Positions 13,492 to 39,362 of a stretch of DNA of 64,000 nucleotides are shown here, piece by piece. Location of the stretch: the sequence record OP595145.1; one strand, given 5' to 3'. The translations under genes were made by a program, and so were the position numbers. The DNA comes from Escherichia phage vB_EcoM_DE16. The first letter of the stretch is position 1; every line of letters starts with the position of its first letter. The notes below the pieces were generated by a model. The model was not told the origin of the DNA. It saw only the letters and a list, made by a program, of their open reading frames with translations, and searched no databases.

Positions 13492-13501
13492 TGTTTTCTC
13501 C

Positions 13502-13669
13502 TTATACTTCTAAACGGAAAGTTTCTTTAGATACAAAATCGTATCCACCTTTTTCAAGCCAGTCATTGTAAACCTCATCAGCTTGAGACTCTATCATAAA
13601 ATACCGAGTGGTAACTTCGTCTCCGACAATACGCACAATTTTATAGCAAATCATGATACCATTTCCCAT
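13502..13669 (-). CDS. hypothetical small protein (55 aa), not in supplied ORF track
   Basis: ATG overlaps upstream stop (TAATG); GAGGAAG RBS; translated by hand to MGNGIMICYKIVRIVGDEVTTRYFMIESQADEVYNDWLEKGGYDFVSKETFRLEV. Confidence 0.35.
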   Translation of the reverse strand: MGNGIMICYKIVRIVGDEVTTRYFMIESQADEVYNDWLEKGGYDFVSKETFRLEV

Positions 13670-13860
13670 TAATCTTCCTCCAGATCAATTTCATTATAAC
13701 AATGTATACAGAAACCATCATTGTGCATATGTTGTTCATAAGACATATCTTTACCACAAGACCAACAACGGATATCCCCATCGTCCCATTCACGTTCTTC
13801 TTCGCCTTCAAATTCATCTGGTAGGTAAGGCATACCAAAATAATCTAAATCGTAACTCAT
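13669..13860 (-). CDS. small zinc-ribbon protein (CxxC...CxxC)
   Basis: Track ORF 13669..13965 trimmed to the internal ATG at 13860 preceded by AGGAG; CWSCG...CIHC pairs; the longer version would run through the polymerase terminator hairpin. Confidence 0.4.
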   Translation of the reverse strand: MSYDLDYFGMPYLPDEFEGEEEREWDDGDIRCWSCGKDMSYEQHMHNDGFCIHCYNEIDLEED

Positions 13861-13873
13861 ATCTTCTCCTATA

Positions 13874-13891
13874 AAGGGGCAGAAGCCCCTT
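13874..13891 (-). terminator. intergenic GC hairpin after the DNA polymerase gene
   Basis: AAGGGGC-AGAA-GCCCCTT stem-loop; weak U-tract. Confidence 0.35.
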
Positions 13892-13909
13892 ATAAAACAA
13901 TACGTTAGA

Positions 13910-16507
13910 TCAATGACAGGATGCCCAGGAATTACCCACATCATATCCGGCAGTAAGCTGAACATTAAGATTGTAAAATTCTCCAGCCTTAGTAACAGCT
14001 AAGGCAGCAAGTTCACCTGCCCGACTATAGGCTGTAAACCATCCACCTTTGGGAGATTCATGAATGTTAGCCCAAATTTGCCCTGTCTCTTTTTCCTTAT
14101 TATGCTTCCATTCTTCGACTTTAGCAAGGCATTCTTTATCAATTTTCTTTTGTTCTTCAGGATCGTCTACTTTCTTCCAACCTAATGATTCAGGTGAAAA
14201 CCATTTGAATTCTACAAGGTTACGAGAAACTTCAAGCTGGGCTTCATCGTGGTATGCAATCATTTGTTGCACGAAGTCTTTATTCTTCCAATCATCTTTA
14301 AAGAAGTCAACACTTAGTCCTTCTTCTTCGATCATGTCGTCATAAATAACCATTGCACGTTTAGCACAGATAACCCCACCACTTTGGAACAGAGAGTTAA
14401 GAATCGCGTGAGCAGAACGAGTAGGAACCTTACGACCGTCAATACCCAAAACATATTGTTTACCAGTCTTAACCCAGAAATCGTTTAAACGTTCTTTAAG
14501 ACGCGCCAATGGGAATGCAGCTTCCCAGAAAGCATCGAACACCAATTGACCTGTAAACTTATCGCTACCAATTGTTTTAGCAACCTTGTCGGCTTGTGCA
14601 CCATAGGTAATACCATACTTAACAGATTTAGCAGGACTACGTTCAAATTTACGTCCAATAGTTTCAGTGATACGTTTTGCCATCATTGTGTGAACATCAT
14701 TAGGTTTCTCTAACAACAGGGCGTTACAATACTCGTGTGGCTCCGGCTCGTACCGCCAACAGTAGTGTGATTCAATTTTTGCTTCCAAAGAGTCGAAGTC
14801 GTAGCCGATCTGGAAGTATTTAGGAACCTCCACACCAAACAAGTTACGCATCTCCCATCCAAACAAAGATGTGACACGAGGAATATTAGCTACAGACCTA
14901 TGCTTCATACGCGAGGTTGCAGCATCACATGTAGCGGCTGGGGTAGGAATACGCCCATCCGCCCTTACTGCGGCTAAGAAACCTTTATCGTATTCTTGAT
15001 CTTCTTCATCTTCTTCCCAATCAGCACCGCCACCTAAAATAGAGTTCCTACGATGTTTATACGTTAAGTATTCTACAATCTGTGTAGCATAAGGGAATTT
15101 CTCACCCAAAGCTTGCAGGTTAGGACAGATTTCTTTTTCCTGACCTTTGGTAAAGCATGGGTTAGTCAATACTTTAAGACCGCGACCTTTACCTTTTGCT
15201 ATACGCTCTTGAATCTTCCTTTCCAAAGTTTCCGGTGTGCACTCCAGATGATCACAACGATCCTGACAAAAATTAGAAGATAGAGTTTGCTCAACGTAAG
15301 CTCGAATACCTTTCTGAAGTTCTTCCTCGCTCTTTTTAATCTTGGTGCCAGATTTAAGAGTCAAGTCTTTATCTTTATATTCAGACGGTACCCAACCTAA
15401 TCCTACAAGCCAGTTTTTAATATGGGTAGTATCGTTCAATGTTGCAGGGATGTTAGGATCACACAAAGGCTCATCTGCTGCAACTGGCAGTTTCCACTCT
15501 TTCCCCAACATCACTAACCACCAATCTCCATCCCTCTCTTCCAAATGACCATCATGTTTCTTAGCAAAATTGATCATATGGTTAGTTGGCTCTAAGTTCT
15601 TTTTAATTTGCAACTTAGGTGGAATAAAAGCCTTAAGATAACCTTTTGTTGCTGGTTTAGGTGGCAAAATAGGCTCAACGAGTAAACGAAGACGCTCCAT
15701 TTCTGCATCCAAAAAAGCAAGGTTCTCTTCTGCTTGCTTCATGTTAAAAGCAAACCCACGGTGTTCCTGGCGTGTAATAATGTCTGCTACACGTTGTTCA
15801 AGTTCAAATGGACCTTCCCATTTATCATAATCACCCCATTCTTCCATAAGGTAATTATATACGCTCGTATTGGCTTTGTTGTCATAGATACAGTAATAAA
15901 GCATATCAGCAGCAAAAGTCTTAAATCGATCTTCTTCTGGAATCTCTTTACGGAAATCTATTTTTACATCACCCCCTGCCTTTCGAGAAAGTGCTGCCAA
16001 ACTATGTCCTGATTTGCCTTCAATCTTTCGATCTGGGTTTAACACTTTACTCAAAATCAAGGAGTCAATAAGTTTTACCTTATTTTTGCCCCACGTATTA
16101 TATTTAACACTGTAATCTAAGCCATAAAACAGTTTTGTAGCCAACCAGTCATAGTTGATACCGTTGTGAGCCACAGCCATTTCAACCAGATATTCAGGCT
16201 TATCTTTAAAATAACCTTCATGATTAATAAAGTCTGGGAAATCTTTTAGTTGAAAATGTGTGTAATCTTGCGCCACATACTCTTTAAGAACATATGTGTA
16301 TTTACCATCTGACTCTTCATAAGGACGCCCATCAAAGATGTATTTAGGGCCATCGTGGAAAGCTACTATTTCTCCTGTTTCATGGTTCTCTAAGACAATA
16401 CAGTGCATTTGAAATGTGTCTTTGAGACGATAAGGACTAGCTAAATAATCGATAGTGTCATTATTCAACAATCCGTTTGCTTCAATATCCCATGTAAACT
16501 TACTCAC
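13910..16507 (-). CDS. DNA polymerase, family A, T7 gp5-like, with N-terminal 3'-5' exonuclease
   Basis: 865 aa; N-terminus MSKFTWDIEANGLL mirrors T7 gp5 MIVSDIEANALL (Exo I); motif B-like ERSPAKSVKYGITYG; motif C YHDE; C-terminus ...NSWASCH like T7 ...PNWAICH; GTG start after AGGAGG, overlapping upstream stop (TAGTG). Confidence 0.85.
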   Translation of the reverse strand: MSKFTWDIEANGLLNNDTIDYLASPYRLKDTFQMHCIVLENHETGEIVAFHDGPKYIFDGRPYEESDGKYTYVLKEYVAQDYTHFQLKDFPDFINHEGYFKDKPEYLVEMAVAHNGINYDWLATKLFYGLDYSVKYNTWGKNKVKLIDSLILSKVLNPDRKIEGKSGHSLAALSRKAGGDVKIDFRKEIPEEDRFKTFAADMLYYCIYDNKANTSVYNYLMEEWGDYDKWEGPFELEQRVADIITRQEHRGFAFNMKQAEENLAFLDAEMERLRLLVEPILPPKPATKGYLKAFIPPKLQIKKNLEPTNHMINFAKKHDGHLEERDGDWWLVMLGKEWKLPVAADEPLCDPNIPATLNDTTHIKNWLVGLGWVPSEYKDKDLTLKSGTKIKKSEEELQKGIRAYVEQTLSSNFCQDRCDHLECTPETLERKIQERIAKGKGRGLKVLTNPCFTKGQEKEICPNLQALGEKFPYATQIVEYLTYKHRRNSILGGGADWEEDEEDQEYDKGFLAAVRADGRIPTPAATCDAATSRMKHRSVANIPRVTSLFGWEMRNLFGVEVPKYFQIGYDFDSLEAKIESHYCWRYEPEPHEYCNALLLEKPNDVHTMMAKRITETIGRKFERSPAKSVKYGITYGAQADKVAKTIGSDKFTGQLVFDAFWEAAFPLARLKERLNDFWVKTGKQYVLGIDGRKVPTRSAHAILNSLFQSGGVICAKRAMVIYDDMIEEEGLSVDFFKDDWKNKDFVQQMIAYHDEAQLEVSRNLVEFKWFSPESLGWKKVDDPEEQKKIDKECLAKVEEWKHNKEKETGQIWANIHESPKGGWFTAYSRAGELAALAVTKAGEFYNLNVQLTAGYDVGNSWASCH

Positions 16508-17301
16508 TATTCCTCCTTTCTAATGTTCTCCAGAACCCACTGAAGTTCTTTTAAACTTAAACTTCTTACTCCCGCAGTTTTACTAGCTTCAGCTTTAAGT
16601 AACGGGTAAGCCTCAATGATACGCGTTTTAAGATCAGAAGTCAAGGCTTTTAAAAAATAGGTAGATGCTTCAGATAAAGAATCTTCTTCTGATAACACTT
16701 TACCTGCACTTGCTCCCGCTCTCCTAACGGCTATATCGTAGTCTTTACTGTTACCTAATACGAATAGTCGATTCTCTCCTAAAACAACGGGAGAACGCTT
16801 CTCGTTGCGTTTAATCCATATCTGGAATACACAAGGAACATCCCAAGGTTCTCCATGAAGAATAAAAGATCCTTTTGGACATTCTTCTTCGTAAAGAAGA
16901 TGCATATGGGGATTTAGTTTGTGTGCAAAAAAGATTTTTTGAAATGTGCGAGGCAAGATAAAACAAATACCACCTTCGTTATCCAGCATTTCAGCACAAT
17001 GGTTAAAGAATTTAATGGCAAGACTAGCATTTTTTCCAAATGGAGGATTACCGACAAAAGCAGTTACACTACCAACAGACTCAACAGATTGAGCTAAAAA
17101 ATCTGCCTCAATACAATCTTCAAACTTAGGGTCAATATCAAAAGAAGTTATGTTTTTAAAACAAGAAGAGAAAGCTCCTTCTCCCGCAGATGGTTCTACG
17201 TAGTTAGCTTCCTCTCCAAAAATTTCTTTGATCTTATCACATAAGAACCCCGCATAAGCGGGGTTAGTGTAATATTGATCAAGTGTGTTCAACTTGCTCA
17301 A
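16507..17301 (-). CDS. N6-adenine DNA methyltransferase-like protein
   Basis: 264 aa; motif I-like VEPSAGEGAF then motif IV GNPPFG; TTG start after AAGGAGG; stop overlaps polymerase start. Confidence 0.6.
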   Translation of the reverse strand: MSKLNTLDQYYTNPAYAGFLCDKIKEIFGEEANYVEPSAGEGAFSSCFKNITSFDIDPKFEDCIEADFLAQSVESVGSVTAFVGNPPFGKNASLAIKFFNHCAEMLDNEGGICFILPRTFQKIFFAHKLNPHMHLLYEEECPKGSFILHGEPWDVPCVFQIWIKRNEKRSPVVLGENRLFVLGNSKDYDIAVRRAGASAGKVLSEEDSLSEASTYFLKALTSDLKTRIIEAYPLLKAEASKTAGVRSLSLKELQWVLENIRKEE

Positions 17302-17310
17302 TAGTCCTCC

Positions 17311-17742
17311 TTAGTTGTTAGCGAACTCAATAGTGAGGTCCACTTTACCATCATCAGAAATAACCATGTTTTTGGTATTTTTAAAGATGATATCTACTTT
17401 ACCTTCACTTACACGACAGAATGCAACACCATCTGCAACTTTATCAATATAATATTTGTAAGAAAGAATACCCACTTTACTACGACCAGCACCTTTTGTG
17501 AAAGAAGGGCTTACATCGAAACGGAAACCTTTAGAAGAAACAACACGGTAAGAACGTCCAGTTGGGATATGTTCAATAACAGAGACATTGTTCTCAACAA
17601 CTTTTACAGCAAACTCTTCAGGATGATCCTCAACAATCATGTGCGGAATGGCAAATGCCAACGCTTGTTTGTGTTTAATAACACCAGCACCCAGAGCACC
17701 AGCAGCTTTAACTTTTGCATTCAGATCGATTGTCATACGCAT
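17311..17742 (-). CDS. hypothetical protein
   Basis: 143 aa; GAGGAG RBS before ATG. Confidence 0.4.
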   Translation of the reverse strand: MRMTIDLNAKVKAAGALGAGVIKHKQALAFAIPHMIVEDHPEEFAVKVVENNVSVIEHIPTGRSYRVVSSKGFRFDVSPSFTKGAGRSKVGILSYKYYIDKVADGVAFCRVSEGKVDIIFKNTKNMVISDDGKVDLTIEFANN

Positions 17743-17811
17743 TTTTACTTCTCCTCTTGTTTGGTTGATGAGACAAGTATAAGTCCCTTCCGCAAAGTTG
17801 TCAACAGGTAT

Positions 17812-17837
17812 TTTTAATAAAAGGGCCGAAGCCCTTA
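17812..17837 (-). terminator. rho-independent terminator after primase-helicase gene
   Basis: AAGGGC-CGAA-GCCCTT hairpin followed on the minus strand by TTTTATTAAAAAT; includes the stop codon. Confidence 0.6.
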
Positions 17838-19613
17838 ATAGTTGCTATCCGTAGGCAAATTAGCAGGATTGTTGAAATACTGCTCTTTGTCATGCAGAGT
17901 TGCAGTTCTAATGTCATAGTAAAACTGCCCTGCTGGACCAGTCTCTGAGAACTCACGGTTTTTTAGGATAAAGCAATGAGTCGTATTTCGTTCTACAGGG
18001 TCTTCAGCGGCTTTATCTCGTTCCAAAGCCAAGGTAATACCAGCACCTTTAGCCAAGAAACTACTACCCATTGCATCGTCCTCTGTTAAGTGTTCATTGC
18101 CACCATTAGCCGATTTCTTAACGTGTGAGATGACAATAATAGTTATAGCATACTCTTTCATGATGCGCTTCAACCATGTTGCTAACTCTTCCTGGGCTTG
18201 AACATCCATACCAGAAAGCAAATCAGAATAAGGGTCGATAACAAGAATTGTTACTCCAAAATAGATGATCATCTCCAAAACTTTTTCTTTGATAGACTCC
18301 ACATCTGCTCCACGATCATCACACACATAAAAACGTGGTGATCCATCTTCTCTTTCGTAAAAATCTAGGATTTTTTCTTTATTCTCTTCCAAGATTTGAA
18401 ATTTCTCTTCCGGTGTTTTCCTATGTAGAGGAATGTGCAGGAAAGAGGACAACAGGTTACGAGAATATTTCTTATAGGTTGCTTCCAATGACAGAATACC
18501 GAGGGTATGTTCTGGGTGTGCAACAATAATATGTTTGGTGATCTCGTTCACCATCAAAGTTTTACCGATACTGGTCTTTGCCAGGATGACTGTAATCTCT
18601 TCCTCTACTAAACCACCACCCAGCATATTTGCAGCAACACGCATAAAAGGAGGCAAGGTAATCATCTTGGATTCCAAACATTCTAATGCAGCTTCATACA
18701 AGACATTAGAAGCATAAACACCTGCTGGGGTGTATAGACGAGCACTCCAAAAAGCTTTTACGAAATCCTTTGCACGACCTTCTTCCAGATACTGATTGGC
18801 ATCCTTAAGATCCATCTGCATACGGTAGACTTTGTTACGAGGCAGCACCTTAACAATATTTTCAAATGCCTCATTACCCGCTTTGTCATTATCCATGCAA
18901 ACAATAATCTTCTTAAATTTTTCAAAGAAAGGATATTGTGCCTGAACTTGTTTATACATACTGGTTTCACCAGTTGTGCCACTTACTACTGCTGGAAGCT
19001 CATATTTGTTGTCCAAGTTTTCAGACAGCATTTGATAAGCTGCCAGAGCATCGTGTTCACCACCTGTAATTACCACAGTATGAGAACGATCTGCAAAACG
19101 AATTTGTCCAAAAAGATCTACATCTTTACCTACTTGACCAATAGGTTTACTGAAATCTTTAGGATGAATACGACGCTTAAAACCAACCAATTCTTTACCG
19201 ATGGTAGTCGGATATAAACAACTTTCTACTACCATCTGATCCCCTTCCTGACGGTATTCATAACGAACACCATAGAAAGATGAAACTTTTTCTTTAATGC
19301 CTCGATAACCACGTGGGTTGGTTGATGTTTCTTGAACAATTTTACGATGAATCTGTTTATTAAATTCCGAACCCACAATCTCCTCCTCTTCTTCTAAAAC
19401 TTCACCATTTTCTCGTAACCATTCTACGCTAGGAATAGTGTATTCACACGCAAAGCACTTAGCACCTTTATGCTCTCCATTAGAATCTAATCCATAAACC
19501 ATCAGGTTATTACGAGAGCGATCCTTGCCATTTTTCATGCAGCGCGGACAACCTGTATGCCCTTCCTTGCTAAGATCAACATCAAATCCATATTTAGTTA
19601 TAATGTGCGACAC
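17835..19613 (-). CDS. bifunctional DNA primase/helicase, T7 gp4-like
   Basis: 592 aa; N-terminal Cys4 zinc ribbon (CPRC...CFAC); TOPRIM-like GGEHDALAAYQ; DnaB-type helicase Walker A AKTSIGKT; GTG start after AGGAGAA. Confidence 0.8.
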   Translation of the reverse strand: MSHIITKYGFDVDLSKEGHTGCPRCMKNGKDRSRNNLMVYGLDSNGEHKGAKCFACEYTIPSVEWLRENGEVLEEEEEIVGSEFNKQIHRKIVQETSTNPRGYRGIKEKVSSFYGVRYEYRQEGDQMVVESCLYPTTIGKELVGFKRRIHPKDFSKPIGQVGKDVDLFGQIRFADRSHTVVITGGEHDALAAYQMLSENLDNKYELPAVVSGTTGETSMYKQVQAQYPFFEKFKKIIVCMDNDKAGNEAFENIVKVLPRNKVYRMQMDLKDANQYLEEGRAKDFVKAFWSARLYTPAGVYASNVLYEAALECLESKMITLPPFMRVAANMLGGGLVEEEITVILAKTSIGKTLMVNEITKHIIVAHPEHTLGILSLEATYKKYSRNLLSSFLHIPLHRKTPEEKFQILEENKEKILDFYEREDGSPRFYVCDDRGADVESIKEKVLEMIIYFGVTILVIDPYSDLLSGMDVQAQEELATWLKRIMKEYAITIIVISHVKKSANGGNEHLTEDDAMGSSFLAKGAGITLALERDKAAEDPVERNTTHCFILKNREFSETGPAGQFYYDIRTATLHDKEQYFNNPANLPTDSNY

Positions 19614-19625
19614 TTTGTTCTCCTG

Positions 19626-19904
19626 TTAAAATGGTTCGTTAGTCTCCATCATATATTCTGCTTCTAGTTCTTCCATGTGCTTTCTAAATTGGAAAGCAAT
19701 TTCTGCTACAGTTACATTTAAATCTTTTTCAAAAACTTCTGTAGAGCCTTCGTAAAAACGAATACCGTCAATTAAAAGCCCTCCGTGGTAATCCCAATCA
19801 CTTTCACGAGAAAGCGGGTTAGGCTCTTCATAATAGTAATCCACCTCCACGACTAAGGCTTTCCCGTTACGAGTGGTGTATTCAAAATCAAAAGTGTTAA
19901 TCAT
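19626..19904 (-). CDS. hypothetical protein
   Basis: 92 aa; ATG overlaps upstream stop. Confidence 0.4.
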   Translation of the reverse strand: MINTFDFEYTTRNGKALVVEVDYYYEEPNPLSRESDWDYHGGLLIDGIRFYEGSTEVFEKDLNVTVAEIAFQFRKHMEELEAEYMMETNEPF

Positions 19905-20848
19905 TATAGCTCCTCAAATAAAAGTCTACGACGCTCATTCAACACATCAATGTGATAATGAGTCCTGACATACTTAGCTAATGCTAATCCTTTCTCCATG
20001 CAAACATCGGGAGCACTTAATAAGTATTCCGTAATATCTTTCCACTCGGAAGGTGTTTCAGCAAAGAATAACAGATCTTTAAACTCTTGTGTATGATAAT
20101 TCTCACGAGGAGAACAAATCAAAGGTAAACCCTTAGCACCTGCCTCAAGAATTTTAAGATTGCTTTTTGCATTATTAAACACGTTATCAATCAATGGCGC
20201 AAGACTGACTTGATGACCATCGTAAGATTCCATGTAGTTGGCATATGGTCTTACACCTTCATAAACACAAGTTGGTGCTACATTTTCTCTGATTACAGAC
20301 CATTCACGACTACTTAAAACTTCAGAATCCCTACGAAAACCACATATTGTAAGATCTTTACCAAAATCGGGCAAGATAGCCAAATCTTGTTTATGTGTTT
20401 CACTTCCAGCCCAGACTAATGGAGTTTTGGAGTAGCGATCACGGGTCAACACAAATTGACCTTCATCGTAAGGAAGTCCATTAGGGATTATGTGCACATT
20501 ATCATTGTATTGTGAAAGTTCAACTTGCAAGGCAGGTGTCGTAGTTGTAACAAGGTCACTGTGCTCTAAAAACCATTTTAAATGTTCACGAATACCTGAT
20601 TCAAAAATACCTTCTAACATGTGTCCTTTTGGAATAACTAAAGAGTCATCCAAATCCATAACCATTTTAAAGCCTAGGTTTTTAAGGGCTAAAAAGCCCT
20701 CTTTACCTTTTGTTGGCACTCCGTTAAAAACGAAAACGTTGTGTTTAGGTTGTGAAGAGAACTGCCTTGAGTAAGGCAGCACTACCCTATGGAAATCGCA
20801 GACACTATAATTGATTCCGTTACGATTGTCAAGAATTATTTGTCCCAT
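19904..20848 (-). CDS. glycosyltransferase-like protein (paralog 1 of a tandem pair)
   Basis: 314 aa; shares CDFHRV, NN-x-KSNLKILEAGAKG-x-P and VRTHY blocks with the next gene. Confidence 0.5.
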   Translation of the reverse strand: MGQIILDNRNGINYSVCDFHRVVLPYSRQFSSQPKHNVFVFNGVPTKGKEGFLALKNLGFKMVMDLDDSLVIPKGHMLEGIFESGIREHLKWFLEHSDLVTTTTPALQVELSQYNDNVHIIPNGLPYDEGQFVLTRDRYSKTPLVWAGSETHKQDLAILPDFGKDLTICGFRRDSEVLSSREWSVIRENVAPTCVYEGVRPYANYMESYDGHQVSLAPLIDNVFNNAKSNLKILEAGAKGLPLICSPRENYHTQEFKDLLFFAETPSEWKDITEYLLSAPDVCMEKGLALAKYVRTHYHIDVLNERRRLLFEEL

Positions 20849-20855
20849 ACTTCAC

Positions 20856-21803
20856 CTACAAACTTTCAATAACCTGGCGTCGCAATTCGTTTGCATCTGC
20901 CAGATTATAATGTGTTCGAACATGTTCAGCCAAGAACAAGCCACGATCTTCCCGATAGTTTGGATTGCGAAGAAGCTTAACAATTTCGTAATGCCATTCT
21001 GCTTTATTCTCTGCGTAAGCAACAGCACGAGCATCTACAGGGTTAAAATAAGGTAACACCTTAGAACAAACAATCGGAATACCTTTTGCCCCAGCTTCCA
21101 GGATTTTGAGATTACTTTTGCAATTATTAAAATCATTATCTACCAAAGGAGCTATAGCAATAGCATGACTTTCGTAAACACTCATGTAATTATCTAAATC
21201 TTTTACAGCAGCTTTATATTTAGCGTTTGGTAAATTTCTGCGAATCTTAATCCACTCTTGTCCCGTGATGCTCTGTGATGCTTCATATCCCGCAATAGTA
21301 AGAAGTTCATCATCGAAAGTATTAGAGACTAGTCGTAAGTCGGGTTCGTGACTAGCACCGCCAGCCCATACAACAGGGGTACCGGATGAACGATCATTTG
21401 ACAAAGTGAATTGTCCACTATCAAAAGGAAGTGCATTTCGGATCACAACAACATTCCTATTTAAGTGACGGATCTTATATGCCAAGTATTCCGTAGTCAC
21501 AATAACCACATCAGCAAGCTTAACCATAGCCACAATAGCATGAGTGTTTGACTCGTATAAACTTGCCAAATAATGCTCTGGATTAAGTTGGTAAAAATCA
21601 TCTAAGTCTACAACAATCTTAACACCTTGACGTTTCAAAGATAAAACGTATTCTGCACCTTTAGAGTGGATACGGTTAAACACAACAACATCTTTCTTAG
21701 GTTGAATATTACTGTTGTTAAATGGTATAACAATACGATGATAGTCACAACCGCTGTGAGGTTTTGCATCAATTTTTAGTTTAGACCATTTTTTATTTGA
21801 CAT
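20856..21803 (-). CDS. glycosyltransferase-like protein (paralog 2 of a tandem pair)
   Basis: 315 aa; colinear similarity to 19904..20848 over the whole length (CDYHRI, NNCKSNLKILEAGAKGIPIV, HVRTHY). Confidence 0.5.
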   Translation of the reverse strand: MSNKKWSKLKIDAKPHSGCDYHRIVIPFNNSNIQPKKDVVVFNRIHSKGAEYVLSLKRQGVKIVVDLDDFYQLNPEHYLASLYESNTHAIVAMVKLADVVIVTTEYLAYKIRHLNRNVVVIRNALPFDSGQFTLSNDRSSGTPVVWAGGASHEPDLRLVSNTFDDELLTIAGYEASQSITGQEWIKIRRNLPNAKYKAAVKDLDNYMSVYESHAIAIAPLVDNDFNNCKSNLKILEAGAKGIPIVCSKVLPYFNPVDARAVAYAENKAEWHYEIVKLLRNPNYREDRGLFLAEHVRTHYNLADANELRRQVIESL

Positions 21804-22476
21804 GTGCTAGTGCCTCCTCATAGGAAATTCGGATTTTCCCATTTTTAATATCCTCTAAAGATGCTTTATATTCTTCCCAGTTAATCCCAATAGCAGCTTC
21901 TTTCTCTTCTTTTGTCAGGTTAGCAAAAGGCATAGGATTGTTTCCAAAAACATCGTCTGGGTGGATATAAGCCATGATACGAAGTGGACAAGGTGTTGCC
22001 TGAATACCATGATTCAAACCAGCAGCTTGCAAACGGTGTCCCCATTCAGCATCTTCAAAACCATAACCGTGAGTGTAAGGACGGAAATAACCCATCTTCT
22101 CAACAACGGCACGAGAATACATTGCAAATTGACACATTGCAAGTTCCCAGAGAATAACTTCTCCTTTGCTTCCAACAACTTTATCTTTGAAATACTCCGG
22201 CATACCAAAGAAATCCCATCCTCCAGAAACAGCCTGATCTACAAAGTATGTTTCCCATCCTTCCATGACTGGGTAGCAATCATCGTCAAAAATAAACCAA
22301 TAATCATAACCTTCTTCATAAAACTGGTGCATAAGTTCATTCCTGGCATAAGCTACACCTTTACGATCTGGATCGTTGAATACTCGAAAATCTGCACGTG
22401 GATCTGTTACAAGGTAGTCTTTAAGTGGACGGACACCTACAGTGATAACACCCACTCCGATTTTAATATTTTCCAT
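21793..22476 (-). CDS. glycosyltransferase, GT-A fold-like (DxD)
   Basis: 227 aa; GVAYARNELM...WFIFDDDCYP resembles a nucleotide-sugar transferase DxD region. Confidence 0.45.
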   Translation of the reverse strand: MENIKIGVGVITVGVRPLKDYLVTDPRADFRVFNDPDRKGVAYARNELMHQFYEEGYDYWFIFDDDCYPVMEGWETYFVDQAVSGGWDFFGMPEYFKDKVVGSKGEVILWELAMCQFAMYSRAVVEKMGYFRPYTHGYGFEDAEWGHRLQAAGLNHGIQATPCPLRIMAYIHPDDVFGNNPMPFANLTKEEKEAAIGINWEEYKASLEDIKNGKIRISYEEALAHVK

Positions 22477-22484
22477 TATCTCTC

Positions 22485-23048
22485 CTAAATAGTTTTACTG
22501 TGATCGTGACAGTGTAATAAATGATGTATAGACCGTTGAGGATTTGTTTGACCTAATCTGTAAATGTGGAACAGATACATTCCCCGCATCAATCCTAACC
22601 TTTTTCCTTTTTCGTGTAAAGTGCGAGAGAAAATTAAGTCAAATTGAATAGATTTTTCTTCGAAAGGAATTTCATTCCATAGTGATTTCCTAAAAAGCAA
22701 AAAGAAACCTGCCAGAGGTGTTCCGAAAGGAACTTCTTCAACACTCACTTTATGATATTCTCTTGCAATCTTAGCATATTCTATATGGTTTAGAATATCT
22801 GGATCATCGTTAATTTGGTTAGAGAAAAGCTGATAACCACTGCCTAACCTGTTACAAGTTGCACCTATTACATCAAAAGGCGGGTTTGACATAACAAGCT
22901 CTTCAAGCATAGATGGTTGATCAGGTAGGAGGAACATTGTATCGGTATCTCTTAAACACACCCAACTATCATCTGGAAGAACGGCAATGGCTTCATTGAT
23001 AGCCTTGCCGATATTTCCTGTCAGATAGGGAGTAATATAATAAATCAT
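22485..23048 (-). CDS. putative glycosyltransferase-like protein (DxD-type)
   Basis: 187 aa; WVCLRDTDTMF D-x-D-like motif; weak assignment. Confidence 0.3.
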   Translation of the reverse strand: MIYYITPYLTGNIGKAINEAIAVLPDDSWVCLRDTDTMFLLPDQPSMLEELVMSNPPFDVIGATCNRLGSGYQLFSNQINDDPDILNHIEYAKIAREYHKVSVEEVPFGTPLAGFFLLFRKSLWNEIPFEEKSIQFDLIFSRTLHEKGKRLGLMRGMYLFHIYRLGQTNPQRSIHHLLHCHDHSKTI

Positions 23049-23064
23049 TCTCCCCTCCGTTATA

Positions 23065-23749: not shown

Positions 23750-24271
23750 TTAACTCCCCTTTGGTAGATAGAAACCATGCACTTTATCTCGATAAACAAG
23801 ACGCATATCACGTTCCCAGTGTGTCCTTATATTCCGTTTCTTGAAGTATAGAGCACCTTTAGTAACATCTAAAACAGACCGCAATTCAGGAAAATGTTTC
23901 TCTAAATAAAGTAAACGCTCCGCTATTGCTTTTGCTTCCTGCCATTTATCTTTTTCTGTTACGTTAAAAGTTTTCGCATATGAGAATTGCCCTTTCTGGA
24001 ACAAAACTCCTCTGACTGTGTTAGGGAAGTAGGTATCATTTCTTCTGTTGATTACCACATTCCCAACGGCATTCATTCCTTTTTTACCCAGACCGCGACC
24101 TTCTGCGTAAATTGCACAAGCTAATAGAATTTTATCATTATATTGCTTTGTACATTTGTGAACTACTTTAGCGGTTTTTACGTTTGCAGCTTCGGCTTTC
24201 GCCACAACAGGTGTAAATGTAAAAGCAGTTAAGGATAGTAACGCAACTGTTACAAAGTTTTTTATCAGCAA
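23750..24271 (-). CDS. endolysin, SleB/CwlJ-type cell wall hydrolase with N-terminal signal peptide
   Basis: 173 aa; signal-like LLIKNFVTVALLSLTAFTFTPVVAKA; core LACAIYAEGRG...VGNVVINRRNDTYFPNTVRGVLFQKGQFS; TTG start after AAGGAGG. Confidence 0.6.
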   Translation of the reverse strand: MLIKNFVTVALLSLTAFTFTPVVAKAEAANVKTAKVVHKCTKQYNDKILLACAIYAEGRGLGKKGMNAVGNVVINRRNDTYFPNTVRGVLFQKGQFSYAKTFNVTEKDKWQEAKAIAERLLYLEKHFPELRSVLDVTKGALYFKKRNIRTHWERDMRLVYRDKVHGFYLPKGS

Positions 24272-32289: not shown

Positions 32290-32763
32290 TTAAAGTTTAT
32301 AAATAGTCACATCGTGACCTGTTTTTACTAAAGTTTCTTCAATCATCACTTGGATGATAGCCCAATTACCTCCGGCATGTCCCGCTCCAATCATAGGTAA
32401 ACCGATCTTACATTTTTGGTCACGGAGAAGCAAATCATTAGCCATAGCTATTAGTGCATCGTATAGGGCATCATAGTCCAACTGACGACCTTTAGCATTA
32501 TATCCGTAACGGTATTGCCCGTATAGATTATATACCAAAGGGTCTGATTGTTCGTCTGGCACCCCTAAACTAAAAGAACCTAACTTACTTTGATCACCAG
32601 CCATTGTGTCTAAATCTGCCGCATATGCATAAGGGAATGCTCGTTTAATTTGCGGAGCAATTCCTGCCCCCATATTACACATACAATTGCAACAATGAGC
32701 AATAACAGTTACTTCACCTGCTTTAGCGGCATCAATAAGATTACCTGTTTTCATTTTAAGCAT
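32290..32763 (-). CDS. macro-domain-like protein (ADP-ribose binding/processing fold)
   Basis: 157 aa; VIAHCCNCMCNMGAGIAPQI and IGLPMIGAGHAGGNW resemble the macro-domain N-x6-GGG and G-x-G-x-G loops. Confidence 0.5.
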   Translation of the reverse strand: MLKMKTGNLIDAAKAGEVTVIAHCCNCMCNMGAGIAPQIKRAFPYAYAADLDTMAGDQSKLGSFSLGVPDEQSDPLVYNLYGQYRYGYNAKGRQLDYDALYDALIAMANDLLLRDQKCKIGLPMIGAGHAGGNWAIIQVMIEETLVKTGHDVTIYKL

Positions 32764-37461: not shown

Positions 37462-38811
37462 TTATCGTTTGGAGAGGAATTGTCTTCCCATGATCTTACC
37501 ATTCTTTACAGCGGTCCCATCATGTCCATTATAATCCCAAGTTCCGTCGATATTACGCAAGAAACTATCACGAACAGTGTAGGCTTTACCGTTCTCTACT
37601 TTACTTTCTTCCACAATGATCGCCATAACAAGCTTATTTTCAATTTCGGTAGTAACCGATTCTTTGATACCCTCTGTAACTTCACGATCATATTGGATAT
37701 AAACTCGCTCCTCAGTCACTTGCACGTCTACCACATTTTTAAATGTGTAGGTCTGTTGTGTAGTGTAGAGGACACGAACGACACTCTTCTTACCTACTGG
37801 CGGCTTCTGACGACGTTTGCGGTAACGTGGAGACGGGTTAAGTTTAATATAGCCTACAATGTCTGATCCATCTCCAGAGTGGCTCCAATAAAGTGTCTCT
37901 GCCAACAAACCTTTTCCTTGGTCCCCATTTCGAAAAAGAACATCAACAGGACCATCACAAGGGCGTTTACCTCCGATGTGGGCTTGGTATTTTGCTGTTC
38001 TTGGGAGAACAAAATATTCTTCAATCTGCCATTCACTATCGTATTTCTCCCACTCAAAGTGGTTGGCTTTGCATACTTCTAAAACACCATTTTTGTAACG
38101 GACTTGAACAAAGTCCTCACAAGGTTGAATACCTGTATTAGGAATATAGGTAGGCTCTGTGTCTTCTGGTTCAAAAGTCTCTTTTTGTTGTTCCACATCT
38201 TCCACTTTTCTTACATGCTTAGTATAAAACATATCTTTAAACTCCTGTGCTTCAACCTCAACTGCAAATTCATGTTCTCTGACAGCCGGAGGCACAAGGC
38301 TTCCACACTCAAGATGTAGAGCATCCAGACCTGCCATTTTATCGTAAAAGATAACTTTTCGATACTTCTTACCGTCTTCTGGAATAGCAGGGTCTACTCG
38401 TTTAAGACGGGAAGCATCGCTTTTAGTCCAAAAACTCTTCCCTGTTGTATTATTGAAAGTAGTAATCATTTCTCCAATTTCTTCTTCAGAAAGGTTACTA
38501 GTGTCTGTGTAAACATCTTCAATTTTTAGCATTTTAGTTTTCTTAAAAATTAAATCTAGCATTGCATCTCCTGTAAAACGTAGTTCATTATCTCCTACTG
38601 TCGGCTCTCCAGTAAATTCATCGGTCCCGACTGTGTGACAGATGTATGGAAAATTTGTGCAACCGTGTAAAAGAGCATATTGTCCTGTAAGTTTAGGATC
38701 TGTCTCTTTAGTCCAACCATATGCAATCTCAATAGCTTTGCAAAGCTTATCGAACAAGCCCCGATTGTTTGCCGCTGTTACCAAATCTTGCTTATGTGCA
38801 TATACATTCAT
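37462..38811 (-). CDS. hypothetical protein (449 aa)
   Basis: Long ORF with ATG start and own terminator; no motif recognised. Confidence 0.45.
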   Translation of the reverse strand: MNVYAHKQDLVTAANNRGLFDKLCKAIEIAYGWTKETDPKLTGQYALLHGCTNFPYICHTVGTDEFTGEPTVGDNELRFTGDAMLDLIFKKTKMLKIEDVYTDTSNLSEEEIGEMITTFNNTTGKSFWTKSDASRLKRVDPAIPEDGKKYRKVIFYDKMAGLDALHLECGSLVPPAVREHEFAVEVEAQEFKDMFYTKHVRKVEDVEQQKETFEPEDTEPTYIPNTGIQPCEDFVQVRYKNGVLEVCKANHFEWEKYDSEWQIEEYFVLPRTAKYQAHIGGKRPCDGPVDVLFRNGDQGKGLLAETLYWSHSGDGSDIVGYIKLNPSPRYRKRRQKPPVGKKSVVRVLYTTQQTYTFKNVVDVQVTEERVYIQYDREVTEGIKESVTTEIENKLVMAIIVEESKVENGKAYTVRDSFLRNIDGTWDYNGHDGTAVKNGKIMGRQFLSKR

Positions 38812-39362
38812 AATAACCCTCCTCGTTTTATTGCAATAGATGCCCTAGGCTCTGCGATACCAGTGGCGTATAAATATGGATGACCTTGTGGAGAAGTTCT
38901 CATCCCAAACGAACCTAATTCTAACCCATACATATCTTCCACGTCAAGACCAATATCTGTCTCTATGATTTGAGTTTGAACTTTGTAATACGTCCAAAAG
39001 AAATAGCGCATAGTTTCGGCATATTCTTTGACGGACGCTCCTGGATAAAACTCAATAATTTCCAACTTTAAGAAAATGTTAAAATGAGCATCATCCAATT
39101 CTTCTTCTGTTCGGTAGCAAGGTGTTAGAGCCATATAAGGATGATCTGTTGAAAATTCAAACCCATCTTTCTCCATCTGGAGGAAAGACTGCTCTGCACT
39201 GGCTACGTAGAACTTACCATTAGGATGCCCCAAGGGGCGATCCTCTTTACCTTCTGGTAATGTATATGCAAGGATATCCGCATCTACAAGATAAGGGACT
39301 TCCAACATCTCCGCAAATCGCCCGTAGTAATCAATAGCTTGAGCAATAACAGCTACGTTCAT
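38808..39362 (-). CDS. hypothetical protein
   Basis: 184 aa; ATGA overlap with downstream gene. Confidence 0.4.
   Translation of the reverse strand: MNVAVIAQAIDYYGRFAEMLEVPYLVDADILAYTLPEGKEDRPLGHPNGKFYVASAEQSFLQMEKDGFEFSTDHPYMALTPCYRTEEELDDAHFNIFLKLEIIEFYPGASVKEYAETMRYFFWTYYKVQTQIIETDIGLDVEDMYGLELGSFGMRTSPQGHPYLYATGIAEPRASIAIKRGGLL

Follow-up and report, generated by a model that had tools for sequence, protein, structure and literature searches.

The 64,000 nucleotides (nt) of Escherichia phage vB_EcoM_DE16 that we analysed (sequence record OP595145.1; hereafter the window) carry a gene for an N6-adenine-methyltransferase-like protein (hereafter the methylase) that overlaps, by a single base, the gene for a family-A DNA polymerase. 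The methylase gene (264 amino acids [aa]) occupies positions 16507..17301 of the minus strand, from a TTG start at 17301–17299 to a TAG stop at 16509–16507. The last base of this stop codon is also the first base of the GTG (16507–16505) at which the polymerase gene (865 aa; 13910..16507) begins, and the shared sequence reads TAGTG (16505..16509). Ahead of the methylase lies a gp077-family gene (143 aa, ATG start, phrog_9938; 17311..17742), whose product has a predicted PD-(D/E)XK nuclease-like fold and which we treat below as the methylase's partner. All genes, signals, and repeats of this locus are on the minus strand. The window belongs to Phapecoctavirus, and the 3.4-kb region is ~99 per cent identical in nucleotide sequence to 64 Phapecoctavirus records, including phAPEC8, anhysbys, Ro121lw, and ESCO13; the TAGTG junction itself recurs in phAPEC8, anhysbys, and ev052.

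The junction is already present in public annotation, because the RefSeq record of phAPEC8 (NC_020079) gives gp078 ('putative DNA N6-adenine methyltransferase') and gp079 ('DNA polymerase I') the boundaries seen in the window, down to the TTG and GTG starts and the single shared base; nucleotide identity is ~99 per cent. These two entries are annotation only. In our literature search, the methylase–polymerase junction was undiscussed and no functional or methylation study of gp078 or gp079 was found; a search for direct methylation or restriction-digest data on phAPEC8-like or rV5-like phages also returned nothing. The methylase gene is named inconsistently among records, as a 'hypothetical protein', as 'DarB-like anti-restriction' (for example, in phAPEC8_ev052, LR597654, positions 1400–2194 of our locus L024), or as a truncated 200-aa coding sequence (CDS).

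An earlier note on this DNA had read the methylase as starting at TTG after AAGGAGG, and that reading holds. The TTG is preceded by a perfect eight-base Shine-Dalgarno (SD) sequence, UAAGGAGG (17306..17313), and a 4-nt spacer (ACTA), and it is the first possible start downstream of the in-frame stop. The true start must precede the conserved DQYYT motif, and the first internal methionine lies near residue 105, past the S-adenosylmethionine (SAM)-binding and NPPF motifs. In orthologues the N-terminus reads MSK(L/R/K)..DQYYT with the start codon at the same position. That codon is TTG in the window, phAPEC8, Klebsiella phage 05F01 (59 per cent identity), the rV5-like phage RudolfGeigy (54 per cent), and a marine contig (L026; 43 per cent), and ATG in loci L022 and L025, ph0011, fHe-Yen9-04, and bacterial homologues. 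The recurrence of TTG in orthologues of only 43–59 per cent identity would fit selection for low output and, in the orthologues that are linked to the partner gene, low methylase output relative to gp077. The stop codon of gp077 (TAA; UAA in the transcript) forms the first three bases of the SD sequence UAAGGAGG and is in the methylase frame, three codons before the TTG (17302–17313).

The polymerase start is equally well defined. Its SD sequence, AAGGAGG (16512..16518), lies within the methylase coding region and is followed by a 4-nt spacer (AATA) and the GTG, as the earlier note had described for the TAGTG junction (16509–16505) and the AGGAGG ahead of it. Because the polymerase frame is interrupted by a stop 15 nt before the GTG and offers no alternative start codon ahead of the DIEAN exonuclease motif, the GTG is the only possible start. 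The N-terminus is MSKFTWDIEA, and the same codon is GTG in the window and phAPEC8, ATG in phiWec186, and TTG in a metagenomic relative (L020). Comparison with orthologues, set beforehand as the check on these start sites, showed that the same codons are used and that upstream ATG starts are absent; the starts are not sequencing artefacts. The TTG and GTG starts of phAPEC8-like phages are thus real and sit at conserved codons, and some deposited records mis-call them. In Klebsiella phage 05F01 (LC483177; locus L012, 4919–5692), for instance, the deposited methylase is cut to 200 aa from an internal ATG and accompanied by a spurious 34-aa ORF (open reading frame), whereas the full ORF, read from the TTG, comprises 257 aa and shares 8 nt with the gp077-like gene. 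A frameshift fusion of methylase and polymerase was ruled out, as there is no slippery heptamer and the polymerase frame is closed by the stop 15 nt upstream of the GTG.

The polymerase matches DNA_pol_A (PF00476; E = 1.4e-13, 51 bits against a curated cut-off of 34.3), and it carries near its N-terminus the Exo I motif of a 3'-5' exonuclease (DIEANG, residues 7–12; a sequence motif aligned with orthologues). The description of the enzyme as T7-like was borne out insofar as T7 gp5 is its sole match among solved structures (E = 1e-22 over residues 503–758). Both are family-A enzymes, the window polymerase having the N-terminal DIEAN exonuclease motif, but the identity is only ~29 per cent over a quarter of the protein, and the lengths differ (704 aa for T7 gp5 versus 865 aa). 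The closest relatives are the polymerases of Pakpunavirus, at ~52 per cent identity.

The genes gp077, methylase, and polymerase lie between one promoter-like sequence and one terminator-like hairpin, and therefore look like one operon. The promoter-like sequence, TTGACA-17-TATACT (17776..17804), is of the sigma-70 type with 11 of 12 consensus matches, is the best such site in 13500–20000, and matches a putative host-dependent promoter annotated in phAPEC8; it is the probable start of the transcription unit. Just before it, a terminator-like hairpin (AAGGGC-TTCG-GCCCTT followed by TTATT; 17821..17836), read from the sequence, overlaps the stop codon of the primase/helicase gene; its T run is short, and it was therefore not called by a consensus scan. 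A second hairpin (AAGGGGC-TTCT-GCCCCTT; 13874..13891), also uncalled by that scan, lies 19 nt past the polymerase stop codon. With a shared unit, the methylase would be made alongside replication proteins. Another promoter-like sequence (TTGACT-17-TATCAT, 10 of 12 matches; 16616–16644, minus strand) falls within the methylase gene at its 3' end, ~110 nt before the polymerase gene begins; sites of this kind are no more numerous in the region than in shuffled sequence.

Overlaps such as UGAUG and UAAUG are typical of translationally coupled genes in bacterial and phage operons. The methylase–polymerase junction resembles them in its one-base overlap of stop and start (TAGTG, 16509–16505) and in having the downstream SD sequence, AAGGAGG, inside the upstream gene, and differs in that the shared base gives UAGUG with a GUG restart and in that the downstream start is unmasked. 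Reinitiation at the polymerase GTG after termination of methylase translation is thus possible, judging from the layout of the junction. RNA folding revealed no masking of the polymerase start (both the minimum-energy and the centroid fold leave the SD sequence and the GTG unpaired; z = -0.09 against shuffled sequence), so coupling would not be obligatory. At the methylase start, folding showed nothing significant (z = -1.14), with the TTG paired in a weak hairpin.

How unusual the junction is can be gauged from the 78 annotated CDS of phAPEC8 in the homologous 50 kb, on which our start and overlap statistics are based. Thirty of 75 same-strand neighbour pairs overlap (40 per cent), 13 of them by four bases and eight by one base. 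The methylase–polymerase pair is the only TAGTG among these eight, and the seven other junctions read T(A/G)ATG. The junction is real, but it is neither rare nor new.

Non-ATG starts are similarly ordinary. The 78 CDS start with ATG in 66 cases, GTG in seven, and TTG in five, and the 15 per cent of non-ATG starts (12/78; 11 of the 12 are kept in the window) compares with ~17 per cent in Escherichia coli. Such starts show no significant enrichment among genes of assigned function (6/26 versus 6/52 of the others; Fisher P = 0.20). Two other genes had been singled out beside the methylase and the polymerase, and their starts were read correctly. The primase/helicase gene (17835..19613, minus strand; Pfam Toprim_2 and DnaB_C) starts with GTG, and the same codon is GTG in Justusliebigvirus JohannJBalmer and L020 and ATG in phiWec186 and 05F01. 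The endolysin-like gene (23750..24271, minus strand), identified from its ORF and translation, starts with TTG, as does phAPEC8 gp067. Its N-terminus, MLIKNFVTVALLSLTAFTFTPVVAKAEA, is hydrophobic and either signal-peptide-like or SAR (signal-arrest-release)-like, and it is encoded only if the TTG is used; since the N-terminus would otherwise be lost, this TTG is needed. Judging by the alignments, the start codons of polymerase and primase/helicase are unstable, changing between ATG, GTG, and TTG from one close relative to the next. Of the proposal that frequent non-ATG starts in core genes tune stoichiometry, the frequency proved unremarkable, and what stands is the recurring TTG of the methylase, which would fit low output.

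Gene order in relatives bears directly on whether the methylase is tied to the polymerase. The slot between the primase/helicase and polymerase genes varies within Stephanstirmvirinae. In 64 Phapecoctavirus records it holds gp077 and the methylase, which overlaps the polymerase. In phiWec181 and phiWec186 the cassette is absent, the slot measures about 83–86 nt with a hairpin and a promoter-like sequence, and the polymerase starts with ATG. Justusliebigvirus has an unrelated 131-aa ORF, and the metagenomic relative L020 has a gp077-like gene and an unrelated 112-aa ORF. Klebsiella phage 05F01 has a gp077-like gene and the methylase, followed by a 35-nt gap and a polymerase only 22 per cent identical to that of the window. 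The one-base overlap is confined to phAPEC8-like genomes, and in rV5-like phages the methylase follows a DnaQ-like exonuclease gene and lies ~49 kb from the polymerase. Judged by these gene orders, linkage to the polymerase is not a conserved property of the methylase. Three further relationships were considered and rejected: the Justusliebigvirus 131-aa ORF is unrelated to gp077, the L020 112-aa ORF is not a methylase remnant, and the DnaQ-like exonuclease of rV5-like phages, which as a detached exonuclease domain of the polymerase would have kept the methylase linked to that enzyme, has no similarity to it (E = 0.3).

The two copies of a 22-nt imperfect direct repeat, which ranks first among the direct repeats in 16400–17900, frame the methylase ORF exactly; they agree at 19 of 22 positions and are spaced 794 nt apart. 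The upstream copy, AAGGAGGACTATTGAGCAAGTT (17291..17312), spans the methylase translation start region and the downstream copy, AAGGAGGAATAGTGAGTAAGTT (16497..16518), that of the polymerase. Of 77 start regions compared with that of the polymerase, the methylase's is by a wide margin the most similar (18/22 in phAPEC8, against a mean of 9.6 with a standard deviation of 2.7 and a next-best value of 14). In phiWec186 the polymerase start region, GGAGGACTA-ATG-AGT-AAG, combines a methylase-type spacer with polymerase-type codons, and such a chimera-like start could have arisen if recombination between the repeats had removed the methylase. The resemblance may also be pre-existing microhomology or coincidence, because TTGAGCAAG is native to the rV5-like methylase as well. 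Alignment of the window with phiWec186 left the insertion boundaries undefined, with homology resuming only at the polymerase SD sequence and the intergenic regions unalignable.

If the polymerase is an inconstant neighbour, the gp077-family gene is a far more regular one. The family is small (34 clusters at 50 per cent identity), and its members stand beside the methylase in seven distinct contexts: Phapecoctavirus, 05F01 (L012, 4501–4926), L022 (1363–1785), L025 (3001–3411), L026/27 (L026, 1504–1914), L028/29 (L028, 1034–1450), and Vequintavirus; a related gene is also that at L003, 5782–6240. The order is gp077 then methylase, usually with 4–17 nt of overlap, in all but Vequintavirus, where it is reversed. 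A profile scan of the loci compared detected a gp077-family gene in seven of the 14 distinct contexts of the methylase and, without a methylase, in one further case (L020). Several other phage homologues of the methylase have no gp077-like or restriction-enzyme-like neighbour, and a Poseidonibacter homologue, in a defence or mobile island, adjoins a different ORF with weak similarity to restriction enzymes; this 199-aa ORF was ruled out as a relative of gp077. On gene order, gp077 is the methylase's consistent pairing, unlike the polymerase.

The sequence of gp077 does not confirm an active nuclease. Only K83, G84, and R87, which belong to a PSxTKGxGR motif, are invariant among 29 family members. 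About two thirds of members retain an acidic residue at the 'PD' position (50), and most retain K/R66, but the (D/E) of (D/E)XK is R or S, which leaves the catalytic motif incomplete, and sequence searches found no match to any nuclease family. Compared with Type II restriction-modification (R-M) pairs that include a small PD-(D/E)XK enzyme, such as PvuII (157 aa), the likeness lies in a small protein of (predicted) such fold encoded beside a methyltransferase, often in overlapping reading frames. The differences are the incomplete and variable catalytic motif, the lytic-phage carriers, and the presence of the small gene without a methylase in one relative. The pairing is a testable lead, either to a phage-borne R-M-like cassette or to a new kind of methylase partner.

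The methylase itself shows the motif order of a gamma-class N6-adenine amino-methyltransferase: DQYYT (motif X, residues 8–12), EPSAGEGAF (motif I, SAM binding, 36–44), NPPF (motif IV, 85–88), and a conserved C-terminal domain of ~130 residues. In the catalytic NPPF, N85, P86, and P87 are invariant and F88 nearly so among 48 family members. The window protein has every residue that is invariant in the family. The family comprises ~2,500 homologous protein clusters that share DQYYT, EPSAGxGxF, GNPPFG, and conserved C-terminal blocks. The window protein nonetheless matched nothing in Pfam or NCBIfam, and PHROGs files it as phrog_5172 of 'unknown function'. A PF26055 tag is precomputed on some homologues; a search for papers mentioning it found none. 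The family has no curated Pfam or NCBIfam model. Phages of the phAPEC8-like and rV5-like kinds are under development for therapy and biocontrol.

The Type II methyltransferase profile of PADLOC (MTase_II, PDLC03255) covers nearly the whole methylase (E = 1.6e-36). The AlphaFold model (predicted local distance difference test [pLDDT] score of 93.6) has a class I SAM-dependent (Rossmann-like) fold, with M.BseCI, M.TaqI, a type I M subunit, and CamA as the top Foldseek matches. Its alignments with M.BseCI, M.TaqI, and CamA, the longest obtained, extend over 220–232 residues and take in the C-terminal domain. For the catalytic domain, RNA enzymes are equally good matches, in alignments of only 136–153 residues. 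A search of solved structures with the single sequence returned only noise, and one with the family profile gave weak matches, of which Ta1320 was the best, followed by METTL5. By its motifs and predicted fold, the methylase is N6-adenine-methyltransferase-like, as the earlier note had called it; we read it as an intact, compact member of the gamma class that most probably acts on DNA. With M.TaqI, M.BseCI, and CamA it shares the class I fold, the motif order X-I-IV followed by a C-terminal domain, and NPPF; it differs in length (264 aa versus 421–580 aa), is only 14–20 per cent identical, and is usually linked to a gp077-family partner rather than to a characterised restriction enzyme. T4 Dam is a phage orphan adenine DNA methyltransferase. 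Orphans of its type are likewise phage adenine methyltransferases encoded among replication genes without a recognised cognate restriction enzyme, but they are of the alpha class, whereas the methylase is of the gamma class and has a conserved small partner gene; a broad anti-restriction role is, unlike for these orphans, unsupported for the methylase, whose orthologue carriers are restriction-sensitive.

We hypothesize that the locus shows a compact operon junction of an ordinary kind within the replication cluster of phAPEC8-like phages, in which the methylase–gp077 module is cargo in a variable slot, and we give this explanation a probability of about 0.7. The sigma-70-like promoter would probably drive gp077, then the methylase, and then the polymerase, with the unit ending at the hairpin. 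Each gene of the putative unit would be served by a strong SD sequence four bases ahead of its start. Ribosomes ending the methylase at UAG could restart at the overlapping GUG, and they could also load directly at the polymerase start, because the start region is predicted to be open. The methylase would be an intact enzyme like TaqI, BseCI, and CamA, probably acting on DNA, and the functional unit would be the methylase with the gp077-family protein rather than with the polymerase, the two forming accessory cargo between primase/helicase and polymerase. The weak TTG of the methylase would be inherited and probably selected, keeping output low, and the GTG starts of the polymerase and primase/helicase would be evolutionarily labile, the corresponding codons in close relatives being ATG. 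So understood, the junction as first stated changes little, being correctly read, routine, and already in public annotations, and the methylase–partner module is the more notable part.

This explanation draws on gene boundaries, start positions, motif integrity, the fold, gene distribution, and neighbour statistics, all of which the analysis shows, and several points weigh against it. Methylase and polymerase have stayed neighbours in two divergent lineages, Phapecoctavirus and 05F01, despite polymerases that are only 22 per cent identical, and adjacency may give some benefit. Non-ATG starts are used by every one of the four genes for replication or modification in the 50 kb (polymerase, primase/helicase, helicase gp040, and methylase), which exceeds the expectation from the 15 per cent base rate, although the grouping was chosen post hoc. 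Finally, we infer, rather than observe, the transcription unit, reinitiation, DNA as the substrate, and low expression.

A more ambitious reading, which we consider unlikely but not far-fetched, is that gp077 and the methylase constitute a previously undescribed, compact, mobile two-gene system of lytic phages ranging from those of E. coli to marine ones, in which gp077 either cuts unmethylated host or rival DNA or is an obligate subunit of the methylase. Were this so, the conserved weak TTG and the overlapping frames would set the ratio of the two proteins, and placement in a replication operon would let methylation keep pace with DNA synthesis.

A narrower version, in which the pair is a mini R-M or homing-nuclease/methylase cassette, seems to us quite unlikely. 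Here gp077 would cut unmethylated host or competitor DNA, the methylase would shield the phage, and co-expression with the polymerase would protect new DNA from the phage's own nuclease. The adjacency in seven contexts, usually with overlapping frames, the match to a Type II methyltransferase profile, and a variable slot typical of mobile cargo all agree with such a cassette; so does the mixture in which half of the sampled methylase contexts lack gp077 and one bacterial homologue sits beside another restriction-enzyme-like ORF, as expected in R-M evolution. The canonical catalytic residues of gp077 are not invariant, however, its (D/E) being replaced by R or S, and no nuclease family matches it at the sequence level. 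The unpartnered gp077-like gene in L020/L021 argues further against an active classical restriction enzyme.

The proposal of the earlier note was that the methylase is coupled to the polymerase, so that newly made phage DNA would be methylated without delay and shielded from host restriction enzymes, with weak starts setting the ratio of the enzymes. The common operon with its one-base stop/start overlap, the intact methylase, the adjacency in 05F01, and the conserved TTG are what one would expect of such coupling. The overlap is lineage-specific, though, and gives way to the 35-nt gap in 05F01; the rV5-like module is remote from the polymerase; close relatives have no methylase at the locus; the polymerase start region is open; and one-base overlaps are common in the genome. 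The postulated benefit is also doubtful, because Vequintavirinae are reported to be exceptionally susceptible to R-M systems in the BASEL assays (PMC8594841), and Vequintavirus, within this subfamily, carries a 54 per cent identical methylase orthologue. This sensitivity argues against broad protective methylation, not against protection at one site. The timing of co-expression that the proposal implies is reasonable given the shared promoter and hairpin, but conserved linkage, obligatory coupling, and protection from host restriction are unsupported, and we regard the proposal as a whole as decidedly improbable.

We give hardly any credence to the idea that the methylase is a METTL5-type RNA m6A enzyme of host or phage rRNA or tRNA with gp077 as its TRMT112-like activator: Ta1320 and METTL5 lead the family-profile matches, some sources name homologues 'predicted RNA methylase', and a small obligate partner would recall TRMT112, but the RNA enzymes align with the catalytic domain only, the Type II DNA methyltransferase profile matches at full length, the predicted fold of gp077 is nuclease-like rather than a TRMT112-like zinc-knuckle, and half of the sampled methylase contexts lack gp077.

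Several observations concern neighbouring sequences and related records. Some Phapecoctavirus polymerases, namely those of anhysbys (L002, 3001–6333), EF1-1, vB_EcoM_REC, and vB_EcoM_01, contain a 245-aa in-frame insertion after ...ESHY and before CWRY; its first residue is Cys, it ends in GN, and the next residue is Cys. By these features it looks like an intein, and an intein-containing polymerase is already annotated in a related Justusliebigvirus record. The insertion is absent from the window, where the site corresponds to polymerase residue 582 (about position 14760). In mapping phAPEC8 starts onto the window, we found that gp050 has a one-base indel at its start codon (near 32761–32763), and the start of gp043 (ribonucleotide reductase) failed to map (about 37600–39000). 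More than 20 MG0656xx records labelled as Campylobacter phages (A135, C9, B15, and others) have methylase or gp077 sequences essentially identical to those of rV5-like or phAPEC8-like phages of E. coli, and probably reflect mislabelling or contamination of the assemblies. Four consecutive glycosyltransferase genes (phAPEC8 gp071–gp074) occupy about 19904–23050 of the minus strand, a short way upstream of the primase/helicase gene; a dTDP-rhamnose pathway has been described in these phages, with speculation about DNA glycosylation (Olsen et al., PMC7552041).

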